Positions 4 through 18,410 of a DNA stretch of 64,000 nucleotides are shown here, piece by piece. How positions within the stretch are numbered: the stretch's first letter is position 1; every line of letters begins with the position of its first letter. The stretch comes from a virus (taxonomy: Duplodnaviria; Caudoviricetes): IMG/VR virus record IMGVR_UViG_3300025838_000035, positions 1 to 64,000 of that record. One strand, written 5' to 3'. The translations under genes were made by a program, and so were the position numbers. Below the pieces are notes generated by a model that was not told where the DNA came from, did no database searches, and saw only the letters and a list, made by a program, of their open reading frames with translations.

Positions 4-438
4 GTGGGTTTGTTGTTGGTTATATCAGGAGGTTACTATGTCTCAGATCATCACGGCTATGAAAGACGGGTTGCAGAAGATAAAGCAGAAATTGAGCGCC
101 TTAATGGAGAAGCTCGTGCAAAAGAAGCAGAGCTCGGACAAAAGCTTGCAAGAGCCACCGGCCAACTGAAAAAGGCTAAAGATGATATTAAGACCAAGCA
201 GGCTGACATTGGTGCTCGTATCGATGCTGGCGAGTTGCGCCTCCCCTCCACCTGTGGTGTACAAGCCAGTTCAGATGCCCCCAATGGAAATCAAACCAAT
301 GGAGCCGAATCTGACCGACAGGCTATTAAAGATATTGTCTCCATCGCTTCAGACGGAGACAAAGCAATCGTCAAGCTCAACGCCTGCATCAGTCAGTACA
401 ACGAAGTGATGCAGACAGTTAATGAGGGTGTGAAATGA
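4..438 (+). CDS. Rz-like inner-membrane spanin (5'-truncated at window edge)
   Basis: Hydrophobic N-terminus followed by coiled coil, directly upstream of endolysin with ATGA overlap; contains a nested lipoprotein ORF; near-copy of 43182..43754. Confidence 0.8.
   Translation: MGLLLVISGGYYVSDHHGYERRVAEDKAEIERLNGEARAKEAELGQKLARATGQLKKAKDDIKTKQADIGARIDAGELRLPSTCGVQASSDAPNGNQTNGAESDRQAIKDIVSIASDGDKAIVKLNACISQYNEVMQTVNEGVK
182..409 (+). CDS. Rz1-like outer-membrane spanin lipoprotein nested in Rz (alternate frame)
   Basis: Signal peptide with lipobox LASC followed by Pro-rich SPPPVVYKP; frame conserved in the second copy at 43211..43438. Confidence 0.8.
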   Translation: MILRPSRLTLVLVSMLASCASPPPVVYKPVQMPPMEIKPMEPNLTDRLLKILSPSLQTETKQSSSSTPASVSTTK

Positions 439-1028
439 TTACAGCAGAAAAACTTCATGCCCTACAAATCGGGCCAGAATGGGTGGAGCCACTAAATGCA
501 ACTATCCAAAAGTTTAGCATTTTTACCGTTAAAGAACAGGCCGCATTTATCGGACAGCTTTCACACGAGTGCAACCACTTCAAAGTCCTTTCAGAAAATC
601 TTAACTATAGAGCAGAAACCCTTCAAGCTCTCTTCCATACCCACTTTAAACCTGACGAGTACGCCCTTTTTGCTCACAAACCAGAAAAGATTGCCAACAG
701 AATCTATGCTAACCGAGGAGGTAATAGAAATGAAGCCAGCGGAGACGGTTGGCTATACCGAGGCAGAGGATGCATTCAGCTCACACTCCATGACAACTAT
801 TGGCATTGTGGGCAAGCCTTGGGTCAGGATTTTGTAAGAAACCCTGATCTTGTAGCAACACCTATGTGGGCAGTTATGAGTGCAGGATGGTTTTGGTCAA
901 CGCATGGTTGTAATCGACTGGCTGAATCAGGCAATGAAGAAGGACTATGCAAAGTTGTAAATGGAGGACTGATTGGTCTTGAAGACAGAAAGAACTTGAC
1001 CAGCAAAGCTTTTGCCATTCTGTCATAA
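435..1028 (+). CDS. Endolysin, glycoside hydrolase family 19 (chitinase-like)
   Basis: AAFIGQLSHEC, ENLNY, YRGRGCIQLT, SAGWFW, VNGGLIGLEDR motifs typical of phage GH19 lysins. Confidence 0.9.
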   Translation: MITAEKLHALQIGPEWVEPLNATIQKFSIFTVKEQAAFIGQLSHECNHFKVLSENLNYRAETLQALFHTHFKPDEYALFAHKPEKIANRIYANRGGNRNEASGDGWLYRGRGCIQLTLHDNYWHCGQALGQDFVRNPDLVATPMWAVMSAGWFWSTHGCNRLAESGNEEGLCKVVNGGLIGLEDRKNLTSKAFAILS

Positions 1029-11802: not shown

Positions 11803-13014
11803 ATGGCAACATCGGCACAACCGGCTCAACCTGATCCATTTTTAGCACCTACTGAACAACAAAGTGGACCACCTGCTGATCCATTTTTAAACCCTGATGC
11901 CAAGTTAGAAGATGTGCATCCTGCATTTGCAGGAAGTGGGTCAACTACAACATCACCCCCACCTCCGCCAGCGCCTAAACAGACAGGGTTGGTTGATCCT
12001 TCAATGGGTGCTATTTTAGGTGGTATAGCTGGTATTGGTGTGAATAAAGCATTGCCTTTACAACCGCCAACACCTCAGCCCTCGGTTGCAACTGCATCTG
12101 GTAATGTGGCAAACCAAAGTGCTGTTGCTCAACAAATGATGTCTGACTTAGTTAAACGTCAGCTAGCACATACCAACCAGTTGTCAGGTTTGCAGCAAGC
12201 AATACAGACAACGCAGTCAATGCATAATCAGAACATGGCTAACTTTGCACAAGCTAGTCAAAATGCACAATCAATGAATGCTGTTCCTAATCTTGATCTA
12301 AACCCAGGTGAATTAACTACAGGTGACAAATGGGCATTTGGAAACCCTGAAAAAGGTACAACCGGTGTAACTGGTGATATGGGCCCAGGCGGTAAAAGTG
12401 TAACTGAAGCTGCTAGAAACTATAAACTACAGCAAGGGTTGTCTCCATCAGAAGCTGCTAAGTTTAAAGTCAATCGTAGCGGCTTGATTGTGACAAATGA
12501 ATTGCCTGTAGAAACACCACTTACTCCTGCACAACAAGCTGCACAAGAAGCATACAAGGAAGCGCATAAAAGAATGACTGAATCTGAAGCAGCACTCAAA
12601 GAGTTGCATGATCGTCATTCTAAGCTCGTTAAAGAAGGGCCATACACTAAAGCGCATGAAGAAGCTGTGGCAAGACAACAAGCAAAAACTGCAGGTGCTG
12701 AAGCCGAACTAAAAACTTTGCTTGAAAGTGTTAAGCCTGAAAGCATGTTGGCTACTGCAGGTCGTGCAATGGGAAGAGTCGGTCCAATGGCAGGTGGAGC
12801 CACAGCCGGTGGTAGACTAATGGAGGCTTGGAATGAATTACAAAAACGTAATTATGGTCCTGCAGCTGTTCATACTATCTCTGGATTAGGCGGCCTTGCC
12901 ATGATGTACCCTAATCCTGCAGTTAGATCACTTGGTGCTCTTGCAGCTACACTTCCAGAAGCCGGCTTATCGGCTTATGAGGCTTCAAAAACTACTGCAT
13001 TACCCAGTAGATGA
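11803..13014 (+). CDS. Internal virion protein (hypothetical)
   Basis: Last + strand gene of the ejection cluster; coiled-coil and Gly/Ala-rich segments. Confidence 0.5.
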   Translation: MATSAQPAQPDPFLAPTEQQSGPPADPFLNPDAKLEDVHPAFAGSGSTTTSPPPPPAPKQTGLVDPSMGAILGGIAGIGVNKALPLQPPTPQPSVATASGNVANQSAVAQQMMSDLVKRQLAHTNQLSGLQQAIQTTQSMHNQNMANFAQASQNAQSMNAVPNLDLNPGELTTGDKWAFGNPEKGTTGVTGDMGPGGKSVTEAARNYKLQQGLSPSEAAKFKVNRSGLIVTNELPVETPLTPAQQAAQEAYKEAHKRMTESEAALKELHDRHSKLVKEGPYTKAHEEAVARQQAKTAGAEAELKTLLESVKPESMLATAGRAMGRVGPMAGGATAGGRLMEAWNELQKRNYGPAAVHTISGLGGLAMMYPNPAVRSLGALAATLPEAGLSAYEASKTTALPSR

Positions 13015-13173
13015 TAGGTCATTAGCACCTTGTGTAGTCACTATTGTGGCTACATGAAATGCTTCTACCCAAACAGCATAAGGGTCTTCTAATAAATCCT
13101 CATTGTGCGTTCTTTTAAGAAGCTCAACCCATTCATCATAAGTTTTTCTCATAAGTACTTGATCAACTAGCAT
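13000..13173 (-). CDS. Small hypothetical protein (57 aa, MLVDQVLMRKTYDEW...)
   Basis: Translated by hand; ATG preceded by GGAGAAAG, overlaps stop of 13163..13414. Confidence 0.45.
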   Translation of the reverse strand: MLVDQVLMRKTYDEWVELLKRTHNEDLLEDPYAVWVEAFHVATIVTTQGANDLSSTG

Positions 13174-13414
13174 TCTTTCTCCTTGCTATAAAGAAGCGAT
13201 AATGCCTAACACTACGGTTAAGCGCTTGCTTTCTGACATTGTAAGTTTTGCATACATCCACTTGACGCCATAAGCGCACAACCACGGCACTTAAAGCGTC
13301 AAATGTAGTAGGCGACCAGTTTGGATGAAGATCTTTAAACTCTCTAAACAATGCTTTTCTTTCGTATAGTTTGAGAGCCTTAAGACTATCATGAACTTCT
13401 TGCCATCGGATCAT
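13163..13414 (-). CDS. Hypothetical protein (possible small DNA-binding protein)
   Basis: Basic 83-aa ORF coupled to the ThyX-like gene by ATGA overlap. Confidence 0.5.
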   Translation of the reverse strand: MIRWQEVHDSLKALKLYERKALFREFKDLHPNWSPTTFDALSAVVVRLWRQVDVCKTYNVRKQALNRSVRHYRFFIARRKNAS

Positions 13415-14334
13415 ATATACTTCTTCTCAATAGAATCAATTTGATTAAGTAAGTCTTCACGTATTTTTAAGTACGTTTCACTACCTGCATATTCATCTCT
13501 ACCTTTATTGTGATAGAACTGCTCTTCACACCAGTCAAAGTTGTCATTCTTTGCATTAGGCGGAAAGATGTTTGTCTTGCCTTTGGCACATTGACGTTGA
13601 TAAAAAGCATCAGGCTTTCTAAAGTCAACCAACCCTTTAAGGAATGGATAGACCTTTAAGACTTCTAGCCATAACTTCATTGCGATGATGTTGTCGACCG
13701 TTGTTTGGATCTGTTCATCCCCACGCATAATGCAATAACCAATAAGGTCTTTAATCGTACAACGAACCATATAAAAATGCTCAAAATTACGAGGCATAAT
13801 TGTACGGGTATCAAGACCGTGAACAAGACCGCTATCAAGCATATCGATATAAAGTTGTCTAGCATCTTCAGTGATCCTTTTATAACGCTCAAAGAACTCA
13901 GGGTTAGCCATTATTGAAGGCTTAACCATCACACGGTCATCACGCATATCACGGTCACCATGCACTTGAGCTGCAAAACTAAACAGCCTATGTCTAATTA
14001 AGTGTGTAGTGTCAATCATATCCATGCCATTAACGGACCATGTGATGTTGATCGTTTCCATTGCAGTGGGTAGTAATTCATAGCGGAATAGTTCATCAAT
14101 GGTTTGATTAATATCCTCTTCAGGGAACTCCCATTGAATCTTGTCATTCCATGTATTCATTAGAAACACTGAAATAGTTTTTCTAAATTCAGGTATTGTT
14201 GGTGCATGGACTAACTGTACATCAATGTTCTCCAGTTGATTTACGAACTCTACGGGTCCGGGTTTTTGTCCGAACTTCAGTGTTGTGTGCATCTTCTGTA
14301 ATTGAGGCATCTGACTCTTGTTGACTTTGGGCAT
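13411..14334 (-). CDS. thyX: Divergent flavin-dependent thymidylate synthase (ThyX)-like protein
   Basis: HLIRHRLFSF (RHRxxS motif), DTRTIMP (ARxxLP equivalent), MRGDEQIQ; canonical Ser and folate-stacking His appear absent. Confidence 0.75.
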   Translation of the reverse strand: MPKVNKSQMPQLQKMHTTLKFGQKPGPVEFVNQLENIDVQLVHAPTIPEFRKTISVFLMNTWNDKIQWEFPEEDINQTIDELFRYELLPTAMETINITWSVNGMDMIDTTHLIRHRLFSFAAQVHGDRDMRDDRVMVKPSIMANPEFFERYKRITEDARQLYIDMLDSGLVHGLDTRTIMPRNFEHFYMVRCTIKDLIGYCIMRGDEQIQTTVDNIIAMKLWLEVLKVYPFLKGLVDFRKPDAFYQRQCAKGKTNIFPPNAKNDNFDWCEEQFYHNKGRDEYAGSETYLKIREDLLNQIDSIEKKYI

Positions 14335-14614
14335 CGTTTTCTCCTTGAAGTTGTGTTAAATGAATCTCTACTAACCTAGCATATCCGGCAATATCTGTCC
14401 AACTATCTATATGGTCAGGGCAAACTGACAATCTAGAAAGTTTCATTGCAATTTTCGAAAAGAATAAATAGAACTCAGGGGCCATAGCTTCGCCTGTTTC
14501 GAACTCGTGCCTCTCAGCTATCAATGAAAGGATTTGTGCTTCCAATGTTATTCCACCGAAAAAATTACCGTAAATTGCGCCTCGCTGCTCTAGAATTTGA
14601 TCTGTCGTTTTCAT
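14222..14614 (-). CDS. DUF6378-like phage protein
   Basis: ILEQRGAIYGNF...KLSRL..PDHIDSWTDIAGYARL signature; annotated 3' part overlaps the ThyX start. Confidence 0.65.
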   Translation of the reverse strand: MKTTDQILEQRGAIYGNFFGGITLEAQILSLIAERHEFETGEAMAPEFYLFFSKIAMKLSRLSVCPDHIDSWTDIAGYARLVEIHLTQLQGENDAQSQQESDASITEDAHNTEVRTKTRTRRVRKSTGEH

Positions 14615-14616
14615 GG

Positions 14617-15126
14617 TTATACCTTATAAGGTTGAAGTTTAGCCTCAAGTTCGTATAGTCTTTTACAACTATTCCTATAGACATCGGTCATATAACCTTG
14701 ATTGCCTAATTGGATCTCATTATCGGCATACTGTTTGCATTGTAGTGCATCGGCATAATGCACGGCCAATGCTTCAGGTGAGCCATCATTGTATGCTTGC
14801 ACATAATGGCTAAGCCTGAATGGAATCATGTCATCAGCAATTTGTTTTTCAGCTTCTTTTAATGCTTTGGCAACATTAGGAAACTGCTTTTTAACTAAAT
14901 GGTTGACATCTGAGATATACATCTCTGGAAGGTCATGGCATAAAGCTATTTTAAGGGCTTTGTCTAGGTCAAACCGATAATCAGCTCTAAGAAGCATAAC
15001 AGCAAGAGCCACAAAATAGCTATGTGTTGCTACGCTTTCTTGAAGTATGACAGGCTTCATGCTATACCGCTTGGTGTGTTCCAATGTATAGCTTTCCATG
15101 AAGAACTTCTCATTTGCTTCATTCAT
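14617..15126 (-). CDS. HD-domain phosphohydrolase (YfbR/DatZ-like deoxynucleotidase)
   Basis: KRY..ESVATHSY, ALCHDLPEMYISD, VHYADAL. Confidence 0.85.
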   Translation of the reverse strand: MNEANEKFFMESYTLEHTKRYSMKPVILQESVATHSYFVALAVMLLRADYRFDLDKALKIALCHDLPEMYISDVNHLVKKQFPNVAKALKEAEKQIADDMIPFRLSHYVQAYNDGSPEALAVHYADALQCKQYADNEIQLGNQGYMTDVYRNSCKRLYELEAKLQPYKV

Positions 15127-15323
15127 TTTTTCATGTTCCTTACAAATGCTGCAAATGATTGTGAGGTATTGCCAAACATCATTTTGTCAAACTCTTGTGC
15201 AACCTCTTCAAGCACTGCATTCCGTAATTCTTCTGATAAGAACTTCATGTCTGTGTTTATTCTTGTTTGTTGTTGAGCAATACGCTCAAACTCTTCATCT
15301 TCAGGGTCTTTAAAGTTACTCAT
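15123..15323 (-). CDS. Small hypothetical protein (MSNFKDPEDEEFERI...)
   Basis: C-terminal RNAVLEEVAQEF..AAFVRNMK motif common in phage small ORFs; start chosen downstream of the track start. Confidence 0.5.
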   Translation of the reverse strand: MSNFKDPEDEEFERIAQQQTRINTDMKFLSEELRNAVLEEVAQEFDKMMFGNTSQSFAAFVRNMKK

Positions 15324-15777
15324 AATCCATTGCCTCCTCCGACCAGTTTTTAGCCTCAAATGTACCTGATTGCTTGATTTCTTTTAGCGCTTGATCTAGT
15401 TGGTCATAAGACCGAACAACTGCGCCTGATGCGGCCAGCACTAAATTAAATTTCTGACCTTCTTTACCGCCAAGCCAATTGTAAATGATAGGTATGCCTT
15501 GAGCATAACACCAACCAGCTTCAAACAATGTTCCAGGGTCCTTACCGTCGGTTACACAAACCGTTAAGTCAGTGTTGTACAAAGCCTGTATATTCACCTT
15601 TAAAACATCGGCAGGTGTCATTGTGTGTGGGTCATATAGCATATCATCTTTTGGACTAAAGTAAGATAGGCCATTACGTTTTAGAACATCTTTGATGTTT
15701 TCTACGACTGTGACTTCACGTTCATTAAAGAACGGTGATGCAATATAAACAGATGGATTACGGTTAATGGATTTCAT
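15316..15777 (-). CDS. Nucleoside 2-deoxyribosyltransferase / nucleotide N-glycosidase-like protein
   Basis: VYIASPFFN, FSPKD, D..V, DPGTLFEAGWCYAQGIPI: NDT/Rcl/MilB superfamily motifs. Confidence 0.8.
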   Translation of the reverse strand: MKSINRNPSVYIASPFFNEREVTVVENIKDVLKRNGLSYFSPKDDMLYDPHTMTPADVLKVNIQALYNTDLTVCVTDGKDPGTLFEAGWCYAQGIPIIYNWLGGKEGQKFNLVLAASGAVVRSYDQLDQALKEIKQSGTFEAKNWSEEAMDYE

Positions 15778-15786
15778 GATTTCCTT

Positions 15787-16053
15787 TCAGTTGAGTTTAA
15801 GGCTTTCACATACGTTACATTTGCATGTATATGCCATTTTTATGATATTAAGAACACTTTCAATAGAATCTTCACCAAACATATGACTACAATCATCACC
15901 ATTGCCTTCACCAGGTCCATCAATACATTTACCAACCAATGTGATGATATAACCATTGCCATAGTTACGTTCATCTGACCAGTCTTCAATATGCTTGCTG
16001 TACTTTTTAGGAATGTACTTAGGAGTTGTTTTAGAAGTCTTATATGTTTGCAT
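15787..16053 (-). CDS. Hypothetical protein
   Basis: 88-aa ORF with terminal CxCxxC. Confidence 0.45.
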   Translation of the reverse strand: MQTYKTSKTTPKYIPKKYSKHIEDWSDERNYGNGYIITLVGKCIDGPGEGNGDDCSHMFGEDSIESVLNIIKMAYTCKCNVCESLKLN

Positions 16054-16104
16054 TTGAGTTCCTTTGAAGTTTAGAATTAAGTGTTTAACAAGTAAACAAT
16101 TACA

Positions 16105-17559
16105 TTATACCATGCTTTTGACATAAGTAAACAGTTTACTTAACTTATTTTCAGTCTCTGGGCTTTTATTTGCATAGTCTTTAATGGCATTCATCAAAGC
16201 TTGTTGAGTTTTGTCTTTGCTATGAATAGCTTTTACAATTGCTTCATCGATCGTGTCTTTAGCAATGATTTGATGCACAATGATATTGTTTCTTTGACCT
16301 TGGCGCCACAAACGTCTTATGAACTGTTCATAGATTTCCAATGACCATGTATTGCTAAACCAGATAACTGCATAGCCTGCACCTTGTAGGTTAAGACCGT
16401 GGCCTGCACTTTGTGGGTGTGCCAATAAAACAGGATGTTTGCCTTGGTTCCAATCATCAATGGTTGTTTGCATTTCTTTGCCGGTTATCCCTGAGCCAAT
16501 GTGCGGTGCATTAGGAAAAAGCTTTTGCAGTCGTGTTAAGTCATGCCTAAAATGATAGCCAATTAAGCATGGCTTACCATTTAACCCTTCAACAAGTTCC
16601 TCAACTGCATTTAACTTCTCATCATGCATAGGCTGAACATCTTTGTCTTCGCCATCAAGATAAATAGCACCATTGGCAATTTGTTGGCATTTACCAACTG
16701 CTACTGCAGCTGTTGATGCCGTTACTTTATTGTCATTGATGTCAAGCAACAACTTGTCTTCAAGCTCTTTGTACATCTTCTTTGCTTTACTTGGCAAGTT
16801 AATATACACTTTGTTTGTGATTAGCTCAGGCATGTCAAGATAGTCTTCAGCTTTCATGCGTAAAACTTTGTCAGATAACTTGTCATAAATGACTGTATCC
16901 ATACCTTGCTTAAGCTCCCATGAATAGCCGCCATAGCCAGTTGGGTAGAAGTATGTTGTTCTAAAATGAGTGATAAATCGTCCAAATGTAGCACCACGAT
17001 CAATTACTAACTGTGGACCAAATATATCCATTAAACTATTCGGAGCTGGTGAGCCTGTTAAGCCAAACCGACGTTTGAATAAGTCCAGCATAGGTGCAAG
17101 CGACTTAAATCTTTCTGTTCTTGTGTTTTTAAGGTAGCTAATCTCATCTACAATCAATGCATCATACGGAAAATGCTGTTTAAGCAATGGCACATTCTTG
17201 ATTAACCACTGTAAGCCTTCAAAGTTAATGACATGAATGAATGACTTGTCATTTAAGTATTTGTCTTTGTTTGGTCCGTGAAGCACACTGATGGTTAGGT
17301 CTTCAAAGTTTTCCCATTTAGAGACTTCTTGTGGCCATACAGCATAGCACGGCCTTAATGGTGCTAAGACAAGTACTTTGTTAATTGCTTTTGCCGACCG
17401 TAGAATCTTCAATGCTTGCAGTGTGATGCTGGTCTTCCCTAATCCGGGATCCAGCCAAAGTTGTCCTGAGCCGTTTTCTACTAGAAACTTTACGGCTTTT
17501 GTTTGGTAATTGTGTGGACTCCAATACATTTGTGATTTCCTCTTTAGTTCGTAAAACAA
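16105..17559 (-). CDS. SNF2-family DEAD/H helicase
   Basis: DPGLGKT, IVDEIS, LTGSP, HPQSAGHGLNLQ, QFIRRLWRQGQ; likely start at MYWSPHNYQ. Confidence 0.9.
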   Translation of the reverse strand: MFYELKRKSQMYWSPHNYQTKAVKFLVENGSGQLWLDPGLGKTSITLQALKILRSAKAINKVLVLAPLRPCYAVWPQEVSKWENFEDLTISVLHGPNKDKYLNDKSFIHVINFEGLQWLIKNVPLLKQHFPYDALIVDEISYLKNTRTERFKSLAPMLDLFKRRFGLTGSPAPNSLMDIFGPQLVIDRGATFGRFITHFRTTYFYPTGYGGYSWELKQGMDTVIYDKLSDKVLRMKAEDYLDMPELITNKVYINLPSKAKKMYKELEDKLLLDINDNKVTASTAAVAVGKCQQIANGAIYLDGEDKDVQPMHDEKLNAVEELVEGLNGKPCLIGYHFRHDLTRLQKLFPNAPHIGSGITGKEMQTTIDDWNQGKHPVLLAHPQSAGHGLNLQGAGYAVIWFSNTWSLEIYEQFIRRLWRQGQRNNIIVHQIIAKDTIDEAIVKAIHSKDKTQQALMNAIKDYANKSPETENKLSKLFTYVKSMV

Positions 17560-17788
17560 GAATTTTGTGATTTAAGCCTCTAAGTAACTCATGGACAGCT
17601 ATTTGTCTAGGACTAAGCACACCGGTTAATGTCTTTAGTTCTACCCATATAACTTTTTTATTAATAACTACAATCCGATCTGGCCAACCAGTGGAGAAAC
17701 GTAAGTGTAGTTTTAAAGATGTCACGCCAAGACGTTTGCATTCTTGACTAAAATGACGTTCTAATTGTTTTTCTAGCACTTTAGTCAT
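17381..17788 (-). CDS. VRR-NUC domain nuclease
   Basis: EKQLE..GWPDRIV..WVELK...LSPRQ; classical pairing with SNF2 helicase. Confidence 0.85.
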   Translation of the reverse strand: MTKVLEKQLERHFSQECKRLGVTSLKLHLRFSTGWPDRIVVINKKVIWVELKTLTGVLSPRQIAVHELLRGLNHKILVLRTKEEITNVLESTQLPNKSRKVSSRKRLRTTLAGSRIREDQHHTASIEDSTVGKSN

Positions 17789-17888
17789 TGTTCAATAGCA
17801 TGCATGCTAACCAGATAAATGTAAGTACTAATGCCGCATTGATCAATGCAGCTAAAAGCGCAAATGTGATCATCATTGTATCAATCAT
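17781..17888 (-). CDS. 35-aa single-TM membrane peptide
   Basis: MIDTMMITFALLAALINAALVLTFIWLACMLLNND, translated by hand; similar type to 19850..19963. Confidence 0.4.
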   Translation of the reverse strand: MIDTMMITFALLAALINAALVLTFIWLACMLLNND

Positions 17889-18156
17889 GTGTGTTCTTCT
17901 CCTTCAGCTTGGCTTCAATGTATTGAATAAGTTTGGAAGTCGGTATGCGACCACTACCTTCTTCTTTGAACTCTACCCAACGCTCAACTTCATCACAATC
18001 CTCATCAGTCAGCCCTACCCATTCTTGTTTTGTATAAAGCTGTATGACTGGCTGCTCCCAATCTTTTGCCATCTCTTCATGGGCAGTCAACACCACTTGC
18101 CATTCAAGCCCCTTTTGGGGAACGAGTTCTTTCATCCATGCTATTGGTTTTCTCAT
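17881..18156 (-). CDS. Modular small protein (..EWVGLTDED..IEAKLKEKNT)
   Basis: Shares peptide modules with neighbouring ORFs; ATGA overlaps. Confidence 0.6.
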   Translation of the reverse strand: MRKPIAWMKELVPQKGLEWQVVLTAHEEMAKDWEQPVIQLYTKQEWVGLTDEDCDEVERWVEFKEEGSGRIPTSKLIQYIEAKLKEKNTHD

Positions 18157-18410
18157 GTGTTCTTCTCCTTGAGGTATTTTTCGTAGTCGTTCATTAAAGA
18201 TACTGCCGTTTTTCTGTCCCAGTTTGATGGGTAATACGCAACAACAAATTGCGCTTTTTCCTCATCAGTCAGTCCTACCCATTCACGCTTGCCCATTGAG
18301 TTGACTGCCTTGTCTACACTTGATTGCATTTGCTTTTGCATACCGTCAATAAAGCCTTGCTCATATTCACTAGCGTCTTCACGCCATGCATTAGGATCAT
18401 ATACAGTCAT
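18153..18410 (-). CDS. Modular small protein (..REWVGLTDEE..LKEKNT)
   Basis: Shared modules; ATGA overlaps. Confidence 0.6.
   Translation of the reverse strand: MTVYDPNAWREDASEYEQGFIDGMQKQMQSSVDKAVNSMGKREWVGLTDEEKAQFVVAYYPSNWDRKTAVSLMNDYEKYLKEKNT

Follow-up and report, generated by a model that had tools for sequence, protein, structure and literature searches.

Flavin-dependent thymidylate synthases (ThyX or FDTS; EC 2.1.1.148), such as TM0449 of T. maritima and Rv2754c of Mycobacterium tuberculosis (Mtb), pass the methylene group of folate via the flavin N5 to C5 of the uracil ring, where reduction of the exocyclic methylene by the flavin follows (PMC8989533). In the Mtb enzyme, flavin adenine dinucleotide (FAD) is bound by the RHR motif at positions 95-97, Ser71 and Arg190, deoxyuridine monophosphate (dUMP) is contacted by Arg95, Arg199, Arg87, Ser105 and Arg107, and Tyr108 forms a lid which covers the uracil C5 and the flavin N5 (PMC6514825). 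The pathway leading to 5-hydroxymethyluracil (hmU) in phage DNA comprises a ThyA-type dUMP hydroxymethylase, a deoxycytidine monophosphate (dCMP) deaminase, a dTTPase/dUTPase and a deoxynucleoside monophosphate (dNMP) kinase (PMC8989533, PMC13458397). Here we describe a gene module at positions 13411-15777 of a 64,000-nt stretch of phage DNA (Duplodnaviria; Caudoviricetes), hereafter called the window, which is the first 64 kb of the 78,777-bp IMG/VR record IMGVR_UViG_3300025838_000035. The module encodes a remodelled ThyX-fold protein together with a deoxyribosyltransferase and an HD phosphohydrolase, and it may belong to a route of thymine replacement that is independent of ThyA. To our knowledge, the thymine-replacement pathways characterised so far all begin with a ThyA-type hydroxymethylase.

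The module comprises the following genes:

15316-15777, minus strand: NDT-family nucleoside 2-deoxyribosyltransferase (NDT), 153 aa; PF05014, E 1e-12; phrog_7995

15123-15359, minus strand: open reading frame (ORF) of 78 aa without Pfam or PHROG match

14617-15126, minus strand: HD phosphohydrolase of the YfbR/HDDC2 type, 169 aa; PF13023 and PF12917; phrog_7076

14222-14614, minus strand: DUF6378 protein with a core of ~92 aa and a low-complexity tail; PF19905-type, predicted four-helix bundle

13411-14334, minus strand: remodelled ThyX-fold (Thy1) protein, 307 aa, predicted flavoenzyme; PF02511, 43 bits

Translational coupling of these genes was confirmed. The 78-aa ORF overlaps the end of the NDT gene by 44 nt and the start of the HD gene by the tetranucleotide ATGA, the gap between the HD and DUF6378 genes is 2 nt, and the start of the Thy1-like gene falls 113 nt inside the DUF6378 ORF, within the part encoding the low-complexity tail. 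An earlier reading of this DNA, made without database searches (the sequence-only reading), had described four coupled nucleotide-handling genes. The coupling and the NDT, HD, DUF6378 and ThyX-like identities stood, but the number had to be corrected to five ORFs, the 78-aa ORF being the additional one.

The PF02511 score of the Thy1-like protein lies above the gathering cut-off of 24.8 bits. An AlphaFold2 (AF2) model built on 40 family members reached a pLDDT of 94.9, and its best Foldseek matches were Mtb ThyX, Thermotoga maritima (Tm) ThyX and PolB, with E values from 1e-10 to 1e-8, TM-scores of 0.63-0.73 on the target and 16-17% identity. The comparison with ThyX structures that the sequence-only reading had named as a check (E 1e-10 to Mtb/Tm ThyX, with TM-scores of 0.65-0.73 on the target) thus supports the ThyX fold. 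At the level of sequence the protein is far from known enzymes. With the NCBIfam equivalog model for thyX (TIGR02170) it scored 28.6 bits, 59 bits short of the cut-off of 87.9, a phmmer search against the PDB gave an E value of 0.1, no PHROG family matched, and only 189 clusters among 1.84 billion representatives matched at E < 0.001. Thus, the likeness to ThyX comprises the fold, the Pfam domain and the RHR, Glu74, Arg172 and Arg199 residues considered below, while the low identity, the missed equivalog cut-off, additional termini and the linkage to NDT set the protein apart.

To map individual residues, we used a profile alignment to Mtb ThyX, the numbering of which is followed here. RHR 95-97 (R114-H115-R116 in the window protein), Arg199 (Arg204), Arg172 (Arg177) and Glu74 (Glu93) are kept, and Ser71 and Arg190 are conservatively replaced by Thr90 and Lys195. 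Lost are Arg87, a dUMP contact from the neighbouring subunit (Met106 in the window protein), Ser105 (Val124), Arg107 (Gly126), the lid residue Tyr108 (Asp127), His69 (Leu88) and His75 (Thr94). This means that three of the five residues in contact with dUMP are gone, as are the Tyr lid and the two histidines of HxSxxEH. One of these histidines (Tm His53) we take to be the one that stacks on folate, as in the T. maritima folate complex. The sequence-only reading had reported that RHRxxS and the downstream Arg motifs are kept, that the ThyX motif is divergent (RHRLFSFAAQVHGDR) with LPTAMET in place of HxSxxEH, and that the conserved Ser and the folate-side His are absent. Both strings are present exactly as read, and the alignment bears out the kept and the missing residues alike. 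Judging from alignment and model, the ThyX fold and the FAD-site residues are retained and the substrate-closing loop is rebuilt. Since Arg172 and Arg199 are kept, a uracil-type nucleotide stacked on the flavin is still the likely substrate.

A residue census in one shared profile, comprising 23 dereplicated members of the clade to which the protein belongs and 59 dereplicated canonical viral ThyX proteins, revealed that the changes follow a common pattern with the signature LPTxxET ... RHRxxSFSAxC-T-G-D-[RK]. Arg87 is present in 59/59 canonical proteins and in none of the 23 clade members. Ser105, again found in all 59, is Cys in 22/23 clade members and Val in the lineage of the window. At the position of Arg107 the clade has Gly (21/23; canonical mostly Arg), at that of Tyr108 Asp (23/23; canonical mostly Tyr), and the following residue is Arg or Lys (23/23; canonical mostly Val). 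His75 was found in 58 of the 59 canonical proteins and in no clade member. The position of His69 is Leu throughout the clade (23/23); in the canonical proteins its alignment is unreliable, with a gap in 38/59 and His in 3. Retained in all 23 clade members are Arg95, Arg97, Arg172, Arg199 and Glu74, and the His of RHR is kept in 16/23. The canonical viral representatives are only 37-52% identical to each other and have nonetheless kept the residues which the clade has lost.

These data bear on the explanation that the protein is an unconventional thymidylate (dTMP) synthase with a rebuilt loop, in which Cys or His would stand in for Ser and the Arg/Lys would be shifted by two positions, and whose partners would rebalance deoxynucleotides towards thymidine triphosphate (dTTP) for an AT-rich phage. 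In line with it, RHR, Arg172, Arg199 and Glu74 are kept. However, the clade has lost, together with the Tyr lid, all three residues that are invariant or nearly so in canonical ThyX (Arg87, Ser105 and His75), and the distance to the thyX equivalog cut-off is large. We regard this explanation as rather unlikely, though it is the main rival of the proposed pathway and a serious one, and return to it below.

The Thy1-like gene is under strong purifying selection: the proportion of nonsynonymous differences (pN) was 0.05-0.12 and that of synonymous differences (pS) 0.67-0.79, and dN/dS was ~0.03 where computable. Across 80 loci of the window lineage there is no variation at the signature residues, nor in the Val-His which this lineage carries in place of the Cys-Thr of the clade. 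The active-site changes are thus a clade signature and not decay. Among the distant matches we noticed a second remodelled Thy1 group (e.g. P0205, P0211 and P0224) with R[ATN]R instead of RHR and the same SQQC[TS]GD loop.

The window protein is longer than ThyX by ~35 residues at the N-terminus and ~70 at the C-terminus. Such extensions, with an invariant Pro259, are found in the clade and are without counterpart in ThyX. Together with the presence of PolB among the fold matches, these extensions could mean that the protein does not act on DNA precursors at all and is a flavoprotein for ribonucleotides or other small molecules, or a non-catalytic nucleotide-binding subunit. PolB is a uridine monophosphate (UMP)/dUMP C5-methylase of polyoxin biosynthesis (PMC5954106), and its structures (4p5a/4p5b) represent the same fold in a neofunctionalised ThyX paralogue. 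However, PolB is a weaker match to the clade profile than Mtb ThyX (E 3e-7 vs 4e-12) and works in Streptomyces antibiotic biosynthesis, while the clade gene is always found within phage replication and nucleotide modules, with genes for DNA polymerases, dUTPase, dCMP deaminase and a deoxyribose-specific transferase. Further, the active-site signature is under strong purifying selection, which speaks for catalysis, and we consider a role away from DNA precursors very improbable.

We next consider the phosphate side of the substrate site. From the T. maritima and M. tuberculosis structures we take the phosphate to have four ligands, three of which are Arg87, Ser105 and Arg107. Their loss, with Arg199 kept, would fit an enzyme that acts on deoxyuridine, so that C5 is modified at the level of the nucleoside. 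In such a pathway, the HD enzyme would convert dNMP to deoxynucleoside, NDT would load uracil, and a deoxynucleoside kinase (dNK)/Tmk-like kinase (that of the host in the window lineage) would re-phosphorylate the product. This would give a role to all four recurrent partners, and it agrees with the nature of three of them, since the solved structures closest to the NDT are those of enzymes acting on nucleosides, the HD protein is of the 5'-deoxynucleotidase type, and the kinase best matches YorR, followed by thymidylate and deoxynucleoside kinases. On the other hand, the phosphate site may persist, given that Arg172 is retained and that an invariant Arg/Lys has newly appeared two residues past the lost Arg107. 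Moreover, acceptance of a nucleoside is known for no ThyX-family enzyme. In our view modification at the nucleoside level is improbable.

The second line of evidence comes from the gene neighbourhood. In ten independent lineages compared by precomputed Pfam annotation, genes for NDT, a YfbR-like HD protein and the Thy1-like protein were common to all, despite family A, DnaE-type or family B DNA polymerases. For a census in IMG/VR we used 8-kb flanks, custom hidden Markov models (HMMs) for NDT, HD and kinase, and dereplication at 75% identity. Of 80 diverse clade loci, 74 had an NDT gene, invariably on the strand of the Thy1-like gene; the median gap was 572 nt, and the other six loci are truncated. 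At the level of dereplicated lineages, NDT accompanies the clade gene in 23/23 cases and canonical ThyX in one of 47 clusters (Fisher p = 2.5e-10). Among 80 canonical viral ThyX loci taken with flanks of equal length, one had an NDT gene and none an HD or kinase gene. The custom NDT HMM detects held-out NDTs at 58-119 bits, and the Pfam NDT model found none in five whole records of phages with canonical ThyX. The association with NDT is thus real, near-obligate and specific to the remodelled clade, although it may reflect co-inheritance within a cassette as well as functional coupling.

Other partners recur less strictly: HD in 14/23 clade lineages, a MazG/dimeric-dUTPase-like protein in 15/23, DnaE in 16/23 and a Tmk/dNK-like kinase in 7/9 clusters, and genes for primase, RecA and dCMP deaminase are also found repeatedly near the clade gene. 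Conservation of the neighbourhood had been proposed in the sequence-only reading as a way to check its idea, and the NDT linkage and the recurrence of HD, MazG-like and kinase genes are in line with it. Since NDT, HD and kinase genes are nearly absent beside canonical ThyX (1, 0 and 0 of 80 loci), generic salvage fails to explain the linkage, and the same counts speak against an ordinary supply of dTMP by the clade enzyme. An enzyme type that is always accompanied by a deoxyribosyltransferase may have a product different from ordinary thymidylate. A specialised, non-housekeeping role of the clade ThyX is thus supported by these comparisons. One lineage carries, immediately upstream of the Thy1-like gene, a fusion of an NDT domain with a GIY-YIG nuclease domain (L103:8991-10001).

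The partner proteins were also analyzed individually. The window NDT scored 48.7 bits with PF05014 (cut-off 28.8) and retains the catalytic Glu (D-P-G-T-L-F-E-A-G), its Glu86 aligning with the catalytic Glu region of 6evs and 7m5h. Its nearest solved structures, 6evs, 7o62, 7m5h and 1s2d, are true nucleoside 2-deoxyribosyltransferases. The HD protein matches HD_3 (PF13023, E 3e-16) and the YfbR-like family (PF12917, E 5e-15; 56 bits, cut-off 25.9), contains the sequence C-H-D-L-P-E and has an intact H...HDxxE...D set. Its neighbours in the PDB are the archaeal HD proteins 2cqz and 1xx7, human HDDC2 and 5'-deoxynucleotidases of the YfbR type. With the NCBIfam YfbR equivalog model it scored 30.3 bits, below the cut-off of 122, and it matches phrog_7076, annotated as 'dATP triphosphohydrolase', with E 1e-13.

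The kinase partner is a P-loop protein of ~140-230 aa with the motifs G-x-D-K-x-G-K-[ST] and D-R-G-P, found in seven lineages including Geobacillus phage GR1. Its best PDB match is YorR of SPbeta, followed by the two kinase types named above, and the family is uncatalogued, with no Pfam hit on record. Genes of this family adjoin the Thy1-like gene at L084:7517-7942, L102:11032-11475, L103:11438-12118, L090:1386-1856, L087:7421-8011, L101:11765-12181 and L001:6370-6807. In L084, a relative with 41% identity, the kinase gene lies between the HD and Thy1-like genes, which is the slot of DUF6378 in the window.

DUF6378 is largely peculiar to the window lineage, with 80/80 of its loci positive vs 1/80 other clade loci. 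The window copy scored 26.9 bits, just below the cut-off of 27.1, and its 92-aa orthologue in G004, a complete relative of the phage that carries the module, scored 32.2 bits. Further, 57/57 DUF6378 homologues carry PF19905, and the ESM Atlas places the window protein in DUF6378 clusters. The AF2 model (pLDDT 85) is a four-helix bundle, for which Foldseek found no match at E < 1 and VIA-align only generic helical bundles with Z < 7. That DUF6378 could be a MazG/MazZ-like pyrophosphatase is unsupported, a profile search of the PDB being empty. The G004 form ends where the Thy1-like ORF begins, and in a sub-lineage the protein repeatedly has 130-144 aa.

The third line of evidence links the module to phages with modified DNA. 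GR1 is the only cultured phage with a clade member (38% identity). Its locus additionally encodes NDT, thioredoxin, HD, a glycosyltransferase of 459 aa, the Tmk-like P-loop protein, RNase H and a nitroreductase, and no TET or ThyA-type hydroxymethylase was seen in the vicinity. In the metagenomic phage L087, the clade gene lies 0.9 kb from the gene of a TET-associated glycosyltransferase (PF20691), and neither a TET nor a ThyA-type gene was detected in this 17-kb locus.

Among 50,697 phage records the window NDT has only 10 matches, which include GR1, YerA41 with its relative GN1, Carin-5, LIS04 and GXN1. In YerA41, Carin-5 and SP-15, thymidine was shown experimentally to be hypermodified (PMC12686479, PMC13697223). 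The NDT gene of SP-15 (gp127) lies three genes upstream of the Thy1-derived gp130, that of YerA41 (gp086) five genes downstream of gp081, and that of Carin-5 12 kb from the gene of a gp130-type Thy1 protein; in Streptococcus phage GXN1 the genes for NDT, HD and a gp130 homologue are consecutive. The gp130 protein of SP-15 was suggested to be a hydroxymethyl-dUMP synthase, a function proposed without testing (PMC5977210). The window HD protein shows 28% identity (E 2e-5) to the HD protein at the DatZ position after PurZ/MazZ in Salmonella phage PMBT28, and a relative of it directly follows a ThyA-like synthase (PF00303, 44 bits) in E. coli phage EP_H11, which is predicted to be T-modified (PMC13697223). 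The closest relatives of the NDT and HD proteins in cultured phages are therefore found in thymine-hypermodified phages or, in a phage with PurZ, at the place of DatZ.

We rejected membership of the clade protein in the SP-15 gp130/YerA41 gp081 family, since the hhalign probability was 2-8% and the A1 profile misses gp130. Because the gp130 type lacks RHR and the hhalign probability is below 10%, the tie to these phages is, as judged from sequence, one of shared partners and fold and not of family membership. The gp130, gp081 and GXN1 proteins resemble the clade protein in being divergent Thy1 proteins encoded near NDT (in GXN1 also near HD), with the closest NDT/HD homologues among cultured phages. 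Unlike the clade, they have ~390-430 aa and have lost RHR, and phages of the gp130 type have blocks of sugar-modification genes and resist standard sequencing, unlike the window lineage.

In comparison with the pathways for hmU in the Bacillus phages SPO1, SP8 and phi-e and for hypermodification via 5-hydroxymethyl-deoxyuridine (5-hmdU), the same set of roles is found, namely deaminase, MazG/dUTPase-like protein, nucleotidase, kinase and C5 one-carbon transferase. However, the hydroxymethylase of those pathways is a ThyA homologue, while the module has no ThyA-family gene and its candidate enzyme would be flavin-dependent. Further, NDT is not a described component there, unlike in the clade module. 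The DatZ/PurZ/MazZ system shares with the module an HD hydrolase gene that adjoins the gene for the maker of the replacement nucleotide, but the window HD protein is at least as near to YfbR/HDDC2, and pyrimidines are concerned here. A 2-aminoadenine (DatZ) system was rejected, since PurZ (PF00709) is absent from the record and four relatives, with 14/14 control genomes positive.

The assignment of the module to a genome required an analysis of the record, which is composite. Positions 17900-18129 repeat the record end (78548-78777; 230 nt, 97.4% identity), so that 18130-78777 closes as a circle of ~60.6 kb. The first 17.9 kb are collinear with a different phage (G001, 76-91% nucleotide identity), and its relatives G003 and G004 are genomes of 56-58 kb whose completeness is shown by terminal repeats. 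The record is thus either a cointegrate or a chimeric assembly, and the module belongs to a ~56-58 kb phage, here called phage A, and not to the 60.6-kb phage which fills most of the window. This is why a DpdA-like giant virion protein and a C5-cytosine methylase were rejected as parts of the pathway: both are encoded in the other phage. The gene of the C5-cytosine DNA methyltransferase (PF00145, E 2e-55) is located at 75124-76431 of the record (L003:13125-14432), outside the window. An inverted structural-gene segment is common to both phage parts (window 12-914 vs 43607-42706, 85% identity).

The early region of G004 encodes a primase-helicase, DUF932, a DenV-like glycosylase, dCMP deaminase, family A DNA polymerase, a PD-(D/E)XK nuclease, an SNF2 helicase, NDT, HD, DUF6378, the Thy1-like protein and a small protein with a phosphoribosyltransferase domain. 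The latter (145 aa, PF00156, L094:14688-15125) could serve base salvage. Neither ThyA nor a second Thy1 gene was found in the complete relatives, so that the remodelled Thy1 gene is their sole thymidylate-synthase-like gene; dCMP deaminase is present. The lineage is abundant in freshwater, with hundreds of contigs found.

Based on these observations, the following pathway can be proposed. The dCMP deaminase of the lineage would supply dUMP. With the lid opened and an acid/base (Asp) placed over C5/N5, the methylene intermediate would be more likely to be captured by water than to be reduced, and the product would be a C5 one-carbon derivative, for example 5-hydroxymethyl-dUMP, instead of dTMP. 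The exchange of Tyr for an invariant Asp and the changed folate-side histidines are as expected if water, and not hydride, captures the intermediate. The HD enzyme would dephosphorylate thymidine nucleotides and NDT would transfer their deoxyribose to uracil or another base; in this way the host-derived thymidine would be broken down, with its sugar re-used for the new nucleotide. The glycosyltransferases in two lineages (GR1 and L087) fit a hydroxyl handle on the base. In the searchable literature we found no experimental report on this clade or on any flavin-dependent dUMP hydroxymethylase.

We assign a probability of roughly 0.4 to this proposal, according to which the clade proteins are flavin-dependent dUMP C5-hydroxymethylases of the ThyX fold, or related one-carbon transferases, and form a second, ThyA-independent route of T-replacement in which NDT and HD strip host T and recycle deoxyribose. 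The wider statement that the module replaces or remodels the thymidine pool, making or serving a non-thymine pyrimidine, has in our judgement an even chance of being true, and the narrower one that the product is specifically 5-hydroxymethyl-dUMP appears doubtful.

Several observations weigh against the proposed pathway. The HD and NDT proteins are, in sequence, closer to nucleoside and dNMP salvage enzymes than to DatZ or Rcl, and in Enterococcus phage nattely the context of NDT is one of plain salvage, with a deoxynucleoside kinase beside it. The NDT association could be inflated by co-inheritance of a mobile cassette, and the clade is not detectably closer to gp130/gp081 than any ThyX (hhalign <10%). 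The window lineage, in which a kinase, a MazG-like gene and any DNA glycosyltransferase are all absent and Val-His stands for Cys-Thr, is the weakest case in the clade. Any modification must be small, given that short-read metagenomes readily yield assemblies of this lineage.

Part of the counter-evidence is at the same time evidence for the unconventional dTMP synthase introduced above. A sole synthase in the complete relatives, with dCMP deaminase present there and genes for dUTPase and a Tmk-like kinase nearby in other lineages, is the set which plain dTMP supply needs. The nitroreductase-type flavin reductase encoded beside the clade gene in GR1 fits net redox turnover, that is, reduction to methyl. 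Finally, the phage A part of the window has ~39-43% G+C, and its DNA sequences normally in many metagenomes. The suggestion of the sequence-only reading that the locus may make a non-canonical pyrimidine and purge the normal one is thus supported in part: the remodelled site, the link to NDT and the HD/NDT relatives in modified phages speak for it, and the salvage-like HD/NDT proteins and the lack of a kinase or glycosyltransferase in the window lineage speak against it.

Outside the five genes, the leftward unit contains the following features:

16104-16131, minus strand: candidate sigma-70-like promoter, TTTACT-16-TATAAT with extended -10 TG (consensus match)

15787-16053, minus strand: Cys-rich ORF of 88 aa without Pfam or PHROG match, first gene past the promoter candidate

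13163-13414, minus strand: ORF of 83 aa, kept in the relative G004

12992-13010, minus strand: terminator-like hairpin and T-run at the end of the leftward unit (consensus match only)

The promoter candidate is located between the SNF2 helicase gene and the module, upstream of which a VRR-NUC nuclease gene is also found. It has 10/12 consensus matches and is the best site in 12800-18300, a region in which the total count of sigma-70-like sites is no higher than expected from shuffled sequence. The 83-aa ORF overlaps the stop end of the Thy1-like gene by 4 nt and shows 27% identity (E 2e-5) to a 79-aa ORF of G004.

The remodelled ThyX clade is of interest for several reasons. If the proposed pathway is true, a flavin-based hydroxymethylase, in which water captures the ThyX methylene intermediate, would represent new enzymology. 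In that case many uncultured phages in which the gene is labelled 'thymidylate synthase' would carry modified pyrimidines, including an abundant freshwater lineage and DnaE-encoding phages. The strict linkage to NDT points to an undescribed role of deoxyribosyltransferases in nucleotide replacement by phages. If dTMP is the product, the clade would provide a ThyX that functions although residues regarded as essential are missing, which bears on the ThyX mechanism and on the design of inhibitors. Last but not least, GR1 is a cultured phage with a clade member, and this makes the question directly testable.

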